A stretch of 64,000 bases of DNA from Escherichia phage vB_EcoM_G2540-3. The notes under the pieces are model-generated. The model had not been told where the DNA came from, made no database searches, and saw only the letters and a list, made by a program, of their open reading frames with translations. Each line of letters starts with the position of its first letter. The stretch's first letter is position 1. The position numbers and the translations under genes are program-made. The DNA lies in the sequence record MK327944.1; one strand, given 5' to 3'. Shown here in pieces: positions 10,374 to 20,225 of the stretch.

Positions 10374-10652
10374 TCAGAATGTAATTTCTAACCAATCACC
10401 ATCACGCTGATCACTATTGACTTTAAAGCTAAATCCTTCTTTTCTCAGCCAATTACCAATTTCTTCAGTAATCAATTTATCACGAGCAGTACAATAATAA
10501 CTAAAATATGTTTTACCTTGTTCAGCTGCTTTATTAGCAAGTTCCGAAAAATCTTTAATAAAACACTCTAGCTTAAACTGTTTGCTTTTAAGTGCTTTTT
10601 CGCGTAATTGATTAGCAAAAGATTCATTTTCATAAAGATCATACTGTTCCAT
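10374..10652 (-). CDS. hypothetical protein (24.2-like)
   Basis: 92-aa ORF in conserved position between rnlB and hoc. Confidence 0.55.
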   Translation of the reverse strand: MEQYDLYENESFANQLREKALKSKQFKLECFIKDFSELANKAAEQGKTYFSYYCTARDKLITEEIGNWLRKEGFSFKVNSDQRDGDWLEITF

Positions 10653-10854
10653 TTTTCACCTTTTTATTAATATGTCTTTTTCTATAGACAACTTTTTCTC
10701 GAGTCTCAAATTTATTCTTAGCAGTCATAGCTCGAGCCCATAATACAGCCACTTCTTTCGCCTGTAAGTTCAATTCACGAGCAATTTCAATGAATGACTT
10801 TCCAGACTCATGGAGTGTAAACACCACAACCTCAGTTCTCATAATCAATCTCAT
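10639..10854 (-). CDS. hypothetical small basic protein, possible HTH (24.3-like)
   Basis: 71-aa ORF overlapping the downstream gene start; conserved position. Confidence 0.5.
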   Translation of the reverse strand: MRLIMRTEVVVFTLHESGKSFIEIARELNLQAKEVAVLWARAMTAKNKFETREKVVYRKRHINKKVKNGTV

Positions 10855-10942: not shown

Positions 10943-12361
10943 TTATGGATAGGTATAAATGATACCAGTTTCTAAAGCAGTTTTATGAATGATGTATCCA
11001 TTGCGCGATTCTTGAACATCAACTTCTGGATAGTCTTTCATCATCTTCTGAAGAGTGTAACGATGCAGGTAGTATTTACTATCTGGATCTTCAGTTTTCC
11101 AATCTTTACCTTCTTCAGTCATTTTTTGGATTTCATCCATAACCCACCAACCGCACCAGATATAAGCTGAGCTACGATGTGGAAGAGGATGAACATAAGG
11201 TAATTCACCTTCTGGTTCCGGAGCAACTTTATCAGTCACTTGAACTTGACCTGTGGCTTTAACTGTTTTACTATCATAGTCAGTTGCTGTAACGACAGCA
11301 GTAACTTCAATAGTTTGACTTCCAATAGATGAGGTATCAACAGTATATACGTTAGTTGACCCTTCCACAGGAGAAGAATCTTTCTTCCATGAGTAAGTAA
11401 TTTGTGCTGCTTCAGGTGCGCCATTAACATTAGCAGTAAATGTAGCCGAAGCATCTTGCTGAACATTAATAGAAGGAGGAGTCAATGTAACCTGTGGATT
11501 CATTGTCTTCTTATTAACTGTCAATGATACTTCATTGGAAGTAACTTCCTTTTCATTATAATTTTCTGCAGTTACTTGGGCTACGCATTTAATTCTTTTT
11601 ACTCCACTTGTAGTTGGAGTATAGTTAAATGTAGAGTTAGTTTCTCCACCAACTTGTGAATCATCTACATACCACTGATACGTAGCAGACGCTCCGTCAG
11701 GTTGAGAAGCTAATGCAGCAGTAAATTGAACCGGGGTTCCAATTACTCCAGCAGCAGGACTAGCAGGAGTTACTGCCAAGGTAGTTGTCTGTGTCTTTTT
11801 ATTAACTGTCAATGATACTTCATTGGAAGTAACGCTCAGTGCATCATAATCTGTCGCAGTTACTTGAGCTACACACTTAATTTTTTTAACTCCGCTTGTA
11901 GTAGGAGTATAATTGAATGTAGCAGAAGTTGCTTCGCTCACAGGAGAACCGTCAACGTACCATTGATACGTAGCAGATGCGCCCGATGGCTGTGAAGCTA
12001 AGGCAGCAGTAAATTCAACGGCTGTTCCGATTACTCCTTCTGGAGGACTATTAGGAGTTACAGCTAAAGTAGTTGTCTGTGTTTTATTTTGAACTGTAAT
12101 AGTTGTACTAATTTCAGCTGTTTCAGCTTCAGAATCAGGAATAGTATTTGTTGCAACTACCTTAATAGTCTTTTGACCAGCAGGTCCTTTTAATACATAA
12201 TCAAAAGTTGCTGCTGATCCTTCTTGGGGAGCATTATCTACGCTCCAAGCATAGGTAATAGTTCCACCTCCAGTTTCACCACTGGGTGTAGCAGTAAACT
12301 GCTTGGTTTCATCAATAACCCCTGTTGGTGTTTTAGGAGTTATATCAACTGTAAAAGCCAT
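10943..12361 (-). CDS. hoc: highly immunogenic outer capsid protein Hoc with an extra Ig-like module
   Basis: 472 aa; N-terminus MAFTVDITPKTPTGVIDETKQFTATPSG... and C-terminal capsid-binding region PEPEGELPYVHPLPHRSSAYIWCGWWVMDEIQK as in T4 Hoc; internal 96-aa module duplicated. Confidence 0.9.
   Translation of the reverse strand: MAFTVDITPKTPTGVIDETKQFTATPSGETGGGTITYAWSVDNAPQEGSAATFDYVLKGPAGQKTIKVVATNTIPDSEAETAEISTTITVQNKTQTTTLAVTPNSPPEGVIGTAVEFTAALASQPSGASATYQWYVDGSPVSEATSATFNYTPTTSGVKKIKCVAQVTATDYDALSVTSNEVSLTVNKKTQTTTLAVTPASPAAGVIGTPVQFTAALASQPDGASATYQWYVDDSQVGGETNSTFNYTPTTSGVKRIKCVAQVTAENYNEKEVTSNEVSLTVNKKTMNPQVTLTPPSINVQQDASATFTANVNGAPEAAQITYSWKKDSSPVEGSTNVYTVDTSSIGSQTIEVTAVVTATDYDSKTVKATGQVQVTDKVAPEPEGELPYVHPLPHRSSAYIWCGWWVMDEIQKMTEEGKDWKTEDPDSKYYLHRYTLQKMMKDYPEVDVQESRNGYIIHKTALETGIIYTYP
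11505..12080 (-). repeat. in-frame tandem duplication (2 x 288 bp) of an Ig-like module inside hoc
   Basis: Units 11505-11792 and 11793-12080 both begin gtctt(c/t)ttattaactgtcaatgatacttcattggaagtaac; protein copies KTQTTTLAVTP...SNEVSLTVNKK. Confidence 0.75.
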
Positions 12362-13100: not shown

Positions 13101-13718
13101 ATGTACCACTTTGTATATGAAACAACAAATCTAATAAATGGTAAAAAGTATATAGGAAAACACTCTACTGATGACTTGAATGATGGTTACCTTGGTTCCG
13201 GTAAGGCAATTCAGCAGGCTATAAAGAAATATGGTGAAAACAATTTCTCTAGAACAATACTAAAAGAGTTTAAAACTTCCGAAGAAGCGTACATGTATGA
13301 AGAAGAAATTATAACTCCTGAAATAATAAAAAGCAAAAATTATTATAATATGAAACCTGGCGGAATTGGTGGAATTGTTATGACTACAGAGGTTATAGCA
13401 AAGATGAAAGAATCTTCCGCTAAGAGATTTGAAAACTCACCGGGCACGGTATTAGGTACAACTTGTTACACTAATGGAACTAAAAATATTTTTATTAAGC
13501 CTGGAGAACTTGTTCCAGAAGGATTTGTAAAAGGGATGGTTCATCCTAATAGAAAGTCCAGAAAAGGATGTAAAGTCAAACCGACTACCACAGGAACTTT
13601 TTGGGTCAATAATGGTGCAATAAATAAATTAATACAACCAGACGGTATTATTCCCGACGGATTTATTAAAGGTCGTCTCATGAAAAGAGATTCTAAAGGC
13701 AAATTTAGTAAGGCATAA
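13101..13718 (+). CDS. segE: GIY-YIG homing endonuclease (SegE-like)
   Basis: 205 aa; N-terminal YHFVYETTNLINGKKYIGKHS... GIY-YIG motif; sits between inh and uvsW. Confidence 0.8.
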   Translation: MYHFVYETTNLINGKKYIGKHSTDDLNDGYLGSGKAIQQAIKKYGENNFSRTILKEFKTSEEAYMYEEEIITPEIIKSKNYYNMKPGGIGGIVMTTEVIAKMKESSAKRFENSPGTVLGTTCYTNGTKNIFIKPGELVPEGFVKGMVHPNRKSRKGCKVKPTTTGTFWVNNGAINKLIQPDGIIPDGFIKGRLMKRDSKGKFSKA

Positions 13719-19056: not shown

Positions 19057-20225
19057 GTATGTTACAACGTCCTGGATATCCAAATCTCAGCGTTAAATTA
19101 TTTGAGAGTTATGACGCTTGGAGTAATAATAGATTTGTTGAATTAGCTGCTACTATTACCACATTAACTATGCGTGACTCTCTTTATGGTCGAAATGAAG
19201 GAATGCTGCAGTTTTATGATTCTAAAAATATCCACACAAAAATGGATGGAAATGAAATAATTCAAATTTCTGTAGCTAATGCAAACGATATTAATAATGT
19301 TAAAACACGAATTTATGGATGCAAGCATTTTTCCGTGTCAGTAGATTCAAAAGGCGATAACATCATTGCTATTGAATTGGGAACTATTCATTCTATAGAA
19401 AATCTTAAATTTGGTAGACCATTTTTCCCTGATGCAGGTGAATCTATAAAAGAAATGCTTGGTGTCATTTATCAAGACCGCACATTATTAACTCCAGCAA
19501 TAAATGCTATAAATGCTTATGTTCCTGATATTCCATGGACTAGCACATTTGAAAACTATTTGTCATATGTAAGAGAAGTTGCTCTAGCGGTAGGAAGCGA
19601 TAAGTTCGTATTTGTATGGCAAGACATCATGGGAGTTAACATGATGGACTATGATATGATGATAAATCAAGAACCATATCCAATGATTGTAGGTGAGCCA
19701 ACTTTAATAGGTCAATTCGTCCAAGAATTGAAATATCCATTAGCATATGATTTTGTTTGGTTGACTAAATCAAACCCGCATAAACGTGATCCAATGAAAA
19801 ATGCTACTATCTATGCTCATTCATTTTTAGATTCTTCACTGCCAATGATTACTACAGGAAAGGGTGAAAACTCTATTGTGGTGTCAAGGTCAGGTGCTTA
19901 TTCTGAAATGACTTATAGGAATGGATATGAAGAAGCTATTCGTCTTCAAACTATGGCACAATATGACGGCTATGCTAAATGTTCTACTGTCGGTAATTTT
20001 AACTTGACTCCTGGTGTTAAAATTATTTTTAATGATAGTAAAAACCAATTTAAAACAGAATTTTACGTTGATGAAGTTATCCATGAATTATCCAATAATA
20101 ATTCAGTAACTCATCTATATATGTTCACTAATGCAACGAAACTGGAAACAATAGACCCAGTTAAGGTTAAAAATGAATTTAAATCTGATACTACCACTGA
20201 AGAAAGTAGTTCTTCCAATAAGTAA
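19053..20225 (+). CDS. 27: baseplate hub protein gp27
   Basis: 390 aa; ATGA overlap with gene 51. Confidence 0.9.

Follow-up and report, generated by a model that had tools for sequence, protein, structure and literature searches.

The hoc gene of Escherichia phage vB_EcoM_G2540-3 encodes a protein 96 aa longer than T4 Hoc, which raises the question of what the additional segment is and how it came to be there. In the window, i.e. the whole stretch of 64,000 nucleotides that was analysed (record MK327944.1), hoc occupies positions 10943-12361 on the minus strand, and the ORF listing gives it as an intact frame of 472 codons plus stop (the stop at 10943-10945), in line with the 472 aa given by an earlier inspection made from the letters alone (the sequence-only reading). 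It matches T4 Hoc (PDB 5vf3_Z) at 9.3e-218 and, as in T4, is flanked by the homologues of 24.3 and inh. The wider gene order in the window, rnlB-like, 24.2-like, 24.3-like, hoc, inh-like and GIY-YIG endonuclease, is that of T4 too, and this is the same gene at the same locus, rnlB-24.2-24.3-hoc-inh-segE (NC_000866 T4p181; PDB 5vf3, 8t1x and others). At the position of T4 gene 24.3 the window holds an ORF of 71 aa (10639-10854, minus strand) against 56 aa (171 nt) in T4, and just past inh, at the position of T4 segE, there is a 205-aa GIY-YIG homing-endonuclease ORF (13101-13718, plus strand); one may speculate that such an enzyme, encoded two genes away from hoc, could favour gene conversion in its neighbourhood during co-infection. 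The sequence-only reading had given T4 Hoc as a protein of 376 aa with a single copy of the module in question, and this is correct (5vf3_Z; hoc of NC_000866, 1131 nt). When the two proteins were aligned, residues 1-103 paired with T4 residues 1-103 and residues 189-472 paired with T4 residues 93-376 free of gaps, which left exactly one 96-aa module unpartnered; there is one D2 module in T4 and there are two here.

At the DNA level the gene carries a tandem repeat. Tandem Repeats Finder reported 11504-12097 as the only array (period 288, 2.1 copies, 79% matches, score 743), and a repeat search of the window placed the copies at 11504-11791 and 11792-12079 with 79% identity. The 288-bp units had previously been read at 11505-11792 and 11793-12080; the repeat and its 288-bp periodicity were thus recovered, while the coordinates were off by one base and did not agree in phase with the peptide start quoted alongside them, being shifted by 5-6 nt (K93 begins at 12085), an offset which is immaterial since the phase of a tandem repeat is arbitrary. 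The period of 288 nt equals 96 codons and one structural domain, and the reading frame is kept. A match of 288 nt at 79% identity, in frame and with the period of one domain, is far above chance. Set in phase with the protein, the two copies are module D2a (residues 93-188; 11798-12085, minus strand) and module D2b (residues 189-284; 11510-11797, minus strand), which share 226 of 288 nucleotides and 76 of 96 residues, close to the 80 percent or so estimated earlier by eye.

For the extraction of modules a D2 HMM was built from D2 modules, some proteins having variant 'KTQTTT' starts. It scored D2a and D2b at 183-192 bits, whereas the flanking domains D1 and D3 gave weak matches of 31-34 bits. 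D2a, recovered by the repeat searches, is the copy without a counterpart in the T4 alignment; it scores 182.7 bits, shows 80.6% DNA identity to T4 D2 and groups with the first of the two modules of other phages, hence a 'first-position' type. D2b is the T4-like copy of 'second-position' type, with 191.6 bits and 91.0% DNA identity to T4 D2, and groups with the single D2 of T4. On either side of the pair are D1 (residues 1-92; 12086-12361, minus strand), which aligned with T4 residues 1-92 and scored 31.5 bits, and D3 (residues 285-380; 11222-11509, minus strand), which aligned with T4 residues 189-284 and has Pfam matches to Ig_3 and I-set over residues 289-374. Pfam matches to PKD, Ig_2, Ig_3 and I-set are found along residues ~100-375 of the protein. 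The capsid-binding domain at the C-terminal end, D4 (residues 381-472; 10946-11221, minus strand), is almost identical to its T4 homologue at residues ~281-376, with 96% DNA identity and one non-synonymous codon difference, and D1, D2b, D3 and the C-terminal domain together range over 86-96% DNA identity to T4.

A fold prediction was in agreement with this partition. The AlphaFold2 model of the 472-aa protein, made from an alignment of 34 sequences (mean pLDDT 83, pTM 0.51), contains four all-beta domains with strands at residues 4-91, 99-187, 194-283 and 290-376, and these blocks are mostly above 90 pLDDT (about 90 in D1 and at least 89 in D2a). The borders of the repeat units (residues 93, 189 and 285) fall in short linkers between the predicted beta-sandwiches. 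The top Foldseek matches in PDB were four-Ig ectodomain fragments, namely Sidekick Ig1-4, Dscam Ig1-4 and ICAM-5 D1-D4, with E of ~1e-13. The C-terminal 92 residues were badly modelled with the shallow alignment (pLDDT <50), and the inter-domain geometry of the model is unreliable; the assignment of D4 therefore rests on its sequence identity to T4 and not on the model. With four beta-sandwiches modelled confidently and the fifth domain assigned in this way, the five-domain arrangement for which a fold prediction had been suggested is supported: 472-aa Hoc consists of four Ig-like domains, D1, D2a, D2b and D3, followed by the conserved C-terminal domain. In T4 the contacts of the C-terminal domain with gp23* have been solved, and one monomer is bound per gp23* hexamer (PMC10385173). 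Since the binding domain is near-identical to that of T4, we infer from the published T4 structure that in the mature capsid of this phage every gp23* hexamer would carry one Hoc monomer at its centre.

An extra module might be an artefact of assembly or sequencing, or a duplication acquired recently in the laboratory, as tandem repeats are a classic source of mis-assembly and the hoc annotation is fragmented across the repeat in some records (UFV05-11). We consider this explanation, in either form, so improbable as to be effectively refuted. The two copies differ at 62 of 288 positions, so that reads map to each copy unambiguously, and the same architecture is common to many independent records. 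Megablast of hoc against 50,697 phage records matched 678 of them. The nearest GenBank record is Escherichia phage vB_EcoM_G2133, with 99.5% identity over all 1419 nt, and the same 1419-nt span was matched in NBG2, VEc20, BF15, phage 132, SP1, PP01 and many more. The 472-aa Hocs of these Tequatrovirus phages (vB_EcoM_G2133, NBG2, VEc20, BF15, PP01 and others) are alike in length and in two-module architecture at 95-99.5% DNA identity, and differ from the present one by point differences only; the D2a/D2b junction of this phage is identical in NBG2, VEc20 and 215Ecol030PP. With an 80-nt probe covered to at least 80%, the junction was found in 49 phage records or more; the count is a minimum, since megablast with this probe missed several known 1419-nt genes, such as those of SP1, ESh28 and ECO07P4. 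In a sample, not a census, of 60 records taken in even steps down the megablast ranking, a one-piece hoc of ~1419 nt was present in 19 and the 1131-nt gene of T4 size in about 30. The two-module Hoc is thus a common and already deposited allele class, carried by roughly a third of sequenced T4-like coliphages, and is not peculiar to this phage. The claim of the sequence-only reading that the duplication is an established one and no assembly artefact is therefore borne out.

Some of the deposited records deserve mention on their own account. The 472-aa Hocs go under varying product names ('PKD domain protein', 'capsid and scaffold protein', 'Hoc-like head decoration'). In vB_EcoM-UFV05, 06, 09, 10 and 11 (H34-H38) the hoc region is annotated in two to four fragments ('capsid and scaffold protein' twice, 'hypothetical protein' twice), which suggests frameshift errors or real pseudogenisation inside a repeat-containing gene. 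The 32-kb record MG010123.1, 'Staphylococcus phage SAJK-IND', contains a T4-like hoc D2a/D2b junction at 95% identity (19498-19574) and is probably mislabelled or contaminated. Many Hoc clusters (P0022, P0026 and others) are assigned to assemblies of Escherichia coli or of Shigella sonnei, one of them under the name 'endonuclease'; such entries have the appearance of phage DNA inside bacterial assemblies together with misannotation.

The two-module form is one member of a series. The best 120 protein clusters from a collection of 5.8 billion proteins comprised 79 of 376 aa, 29 of 472 aa and 7-9 of ~568 aa, and being the top-scoring matches they give class frequencies skewed to the long forms. 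The classes of 376, 472 and 568 aa hold one, two and three D2-type modules, and by the D2 HMM they have three, four and five Ig-like segments, respectively. The longest Hocs, of 568-570 aa (P0001-P0008, e.g. Escherichia phages UGKSEcP1 and UGKSEcP2 and metagenomic relatives), share D1, D3, the C-terminal domain and the 96-aa module family with the present protein, and differ from it by a third D2-type module, their three modules being 73-84% identical mutually; Hocs of the UGKSEcP1/UGKSEcP2 type complete the 376/472/568 aa series. A further cluster, P0045 (567 aa, 24 member sequences), has a first D2 of T4 type while its second and third modules and D3 are strongly divergent, with 53% identity to the query overall, and looks like a chimera between lineages.

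The divergence of the two copies in this phage was assessed by the Nei-Gojobori method, which gave a dS of 0.748 and a dN of 0.143 (ratio 0.19); at these values both copies are constrained and their split is old. D2a and D2b are both under purifying selection. Their differences lie mostly in predicted loops (15 of the 20 amino-acid differences), and over 135 distinct modules the column entropy is 0.61 in loops versus 0.27 in strands. Module typing over 122 proteins, 31 two-copy clusters among them, showed that the first of two modules is on average 88% identical to other first modules across phages and 79.5% to second modules, while identity between the copies inside one protein ranges from 56 to 85% with a median of 79%. 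None of the sampled two-copy Hocs among these typed proteins had copies more than 85% identical, i.e. no fresh duplication was found. A recent duplication specific to this phage was rejected on these grounds, as a first-position module resembles its counterparts in other phages more closely than it does the module next to it; the same conservation of positional types, and the want of any two-copy Hoc with copies above 85% identity, also speaks against the artefact considered above.

From this evidence we conclude that the two-module (472-aa) hoc allele very probably goes back to an old in-frame duplication of one domain, with both copies constrained and with the D2 region forming a cassette array across Tequatrovirus. 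D2a and D2b would have arisen when one Ig domain, no more and no less, was duplicated long ago in tandem and in frame; both are kept by purifying selection, and their differences are concentrated in surface loops as predicted by the model. Over the genus as a whole this region behaves as a cassette array of one, two or three copies in which module types tend to keep their position. The module ends are the best-conserved DNA of the array. A stretch of 35 nt at the 3' end of D2a (11799-11833, minus strand) is identical to its partner at the 3' end of D2b (11511-11545, minus strand), and an exact-run comparison of D2a with D2b gave it as the longest exact run between the copies (module offset 252); this 35-nt sequence precedes both the D2a/D2b and the D2b/D3 junction and probably serves as substrate for unequal homologous recombination. 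With such near-identical ends, recombination of this kind in co-infection would easily add a third module to two, or remove one of two, and, as far as the sequences allow us to judge, copy number probably changes in this way. For a single module to give rise to the first array, a rare illegitimate event would be required. Patches within the modules would be shuffled between phages as well.

Such shuffling bears on an alternative origin, in which a single rare illegitimate recombination between co-infecting phages placed two long-diverged single-module D2 alleles, A and B, head to tail, so that the 21% divergence between the modules predates the array. We regard this origin as possible but on the whole doubtful. 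Both types do occur as the only D2 of 376-aa Hocs, 20 of these single-copy modules being nearer to the first-position type and 62 nearer to the second, as the joining of alleles would have it. D2a and D2b also differ by 28 synonymous codons, about twice the 10-15 per domain that separate this phage from T4 in D1, D3 and D4 (D2b versus T4 D2 gives 14). On the other side, the junction of module end to module start in single-copy genes ('...NKKT' junctions) offers micro-homology only for a joining event, whereas a two-copy array can readily lose a module through its identical 35-nt ends, and single-copy modules that are mosaics of A and B are equally expected if they derive from arrays. Either origin leads to the same present-day gene with the same function. 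With respect to the polarity of gain versus loss, an old duplication with later losses and an old allelic dimorphism joined once into an array fit about equally well.

Mosaic single-copy modules are indeed common. There are three variable patches in D2, and the single-copy modules fall into BBA (20), BBB (14), ABB (7), BAA (6), AAA (6), ABA (5) and other patterns, so that every A/B patch combination is represented; judged by these patches, the single-module Hocs, that of T4 included, are mosaics of both module types. At informative DNA sites the single D2 of T4 resembles D2b for ~225 nt, changing over to D2a in the TATDYDALS patch (L022:1688-2818 compared with window positions 11510-12085). 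Derivation of T4 D2 from one unequal crossover in an A-B array was considered and is unsupported, as it predicts an A-type head and a B-type tail while T4 has a B-type head and an A-type tail (BBA). This arrangement, together with the occurrence of all patch combinations, requires repeated exchange. Since both types occur as the sole D2 elsewhere and recombination has shuffled them, the 21% divergence provides no simple date for the duplication in this phage.

Under the preferred reading of an old one-domain duplication within a cassette array, it is of interest that a parallel series exists in a second lineage. IMG/VR loci of this lineage have Hoc lengths of 279-282, 367-377 and 471-472 aa (L005:1501-2919, L006, L007, L011, L015). 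L005 corresponds to phage IME341, and among the records it matches are JS10, Bp7, WG01 and MX01; we take this group (L005-L012) to be Dhakavirus-like. Its series of 282/377/472 aa runs parallel to that of Tequatrovirus, and the extra module is again a tandem copy of the neighbouring Ig module. In L005 and L006 the extra copy is of the D3-type module (modules 3 and 4 being 57% and 76% identical, respectively), and L007 (377 aa) has exactly one D3-type module fewer. In the IME341 group, then, a D3-type module has been duplicated in place of D2, which makes that duplication an independent event, and gain and loss of Hoc modules recurrent rather than a one-off.

Variation of domain number in Hoc is already in the literature, and the present allele is already known. 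Among Hoc homologues the C-terminal domain is conserved, while the number of Ig-like domains in the string that carries it differs and reaches 10 in Serratia phage Muldoon (PMC10385173), and the Hoc-like protein of Klebsiella phage PMBT63 has one extra Ig-like domain relative to T4 (2026 paper, PMC13435897). These proteins, and RB49 Hoc with its crystal structure of three Ig domains, resemble the one described here in having a variable Ig string on a conserved capsid-binding domain. They differ in that their identity to T4 Hoc is 22-46% according to the papers and in that no close copy of a neighbour is found among their extra domains, whereas the extra domain here is a 79%-identical tandem copy. 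Our literature search returned these general statements on domain number and the one Klebsiella example, and no explicit description of a D2 tandem module series in Tequatrovirus. What is mildly new is the population picture only, namely that modules, one to three in number, form a positional array and are shuffled into mosaics, and that a second lineage has a parallel series; this will not surprise a specialist.

What the additional module does for the phage is a matter of extrapolation from T4. The sequence-only reading had proposed that a longer Hoc fibre would project further from the capsid and could change adherence to mucus or cell surfaces. The T4 Hoc fibre is ~180 Å long (PMC10385173), and dividing this length among its four domains, we estimate that a fibre with four Ig domains would be longer by about one Ig domain, roughly 45 Å. 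In the BAM model, Ig-like domains displayed on the capsid act as mucus adhesins, binding mucin glycans and raising retention in mucus; this is known of the Hoc proteins of T4 and phiPNJ-6, and Hoc has been linked to the binding of mucin and fucose (PMC13248984). By analogy, the extra module may present one more variable loop surface through which glycans or cells could be bound weakly, and an effect of the longer fibre on adhesion is plausible. It could be argued instead that the module is a functionally neutral length polymorphism, a spacer that is tolerated since Hoc is non-essential and that leaves adherence and fitness unaffected; under laboratory conditions the phage can do without Hoc (PMC10385173; PMC10580926), and forms with one, two and three modules coexist in otherwise similar phages with similar hosts. 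Neutrality appears unlikely to us: a useless segment left to drift would hardly be expected to show a dN/dS of 0.19 between the copies or to keep its frame open in dozens of lineages, variation is concentrated in the loops while the framework is conserved, and module number varies in a parallel series in the second lineage. The constraint on both copies indicates that the extra module is not junk.

A broader proposal, which we put forward tentatively and consider less probable than not, is that two regions, D2 in Tequatrovirus and independently D3 in the IME341 group, are actively maintained cassette arrays, variable in copy number and shuffled by recombination, with one to three position-specific Ig modules in which the loops diversify on a conserved framework. 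A maintained Hoc cassette array of this kind was not found described as such in our literature search. If the proposal is true, the arrays would provide a standing polymorphism in fibre length and surface specificity, under diversifying or frequency-dependent selection by mucosal glycans or antibodies. For this phage the finding carries little weight, the gene being a known and widely deposited allele of a non-essential decoration protein. For the group as a whole it may be noted that T4, the reference for Hoc structure, phage display, vaccine scaffolds and the mucus-adherence model, has the shorter form, while a large minority of its natural relatives would, to judge from their genes, bear a fibre one or two Ig domains longer. 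The natural series of 376, 472 and 568 aa is a ready-made set for relating fibre length and module content to adherence, aggregation and immunogenicity, and the number of Hoc modules is relevant to the choice of therapeutic T4-like phages or display scaffolds.

Length changes other than those of whole modules were seen as well. Small in-frame deletions within Ig domains are present in P0033 (468 aa, 4 aa missing from D3) and P0115 (371 aa, 5 aa missing from D1), from which it follows that Hoc tolerates other changes of length too.
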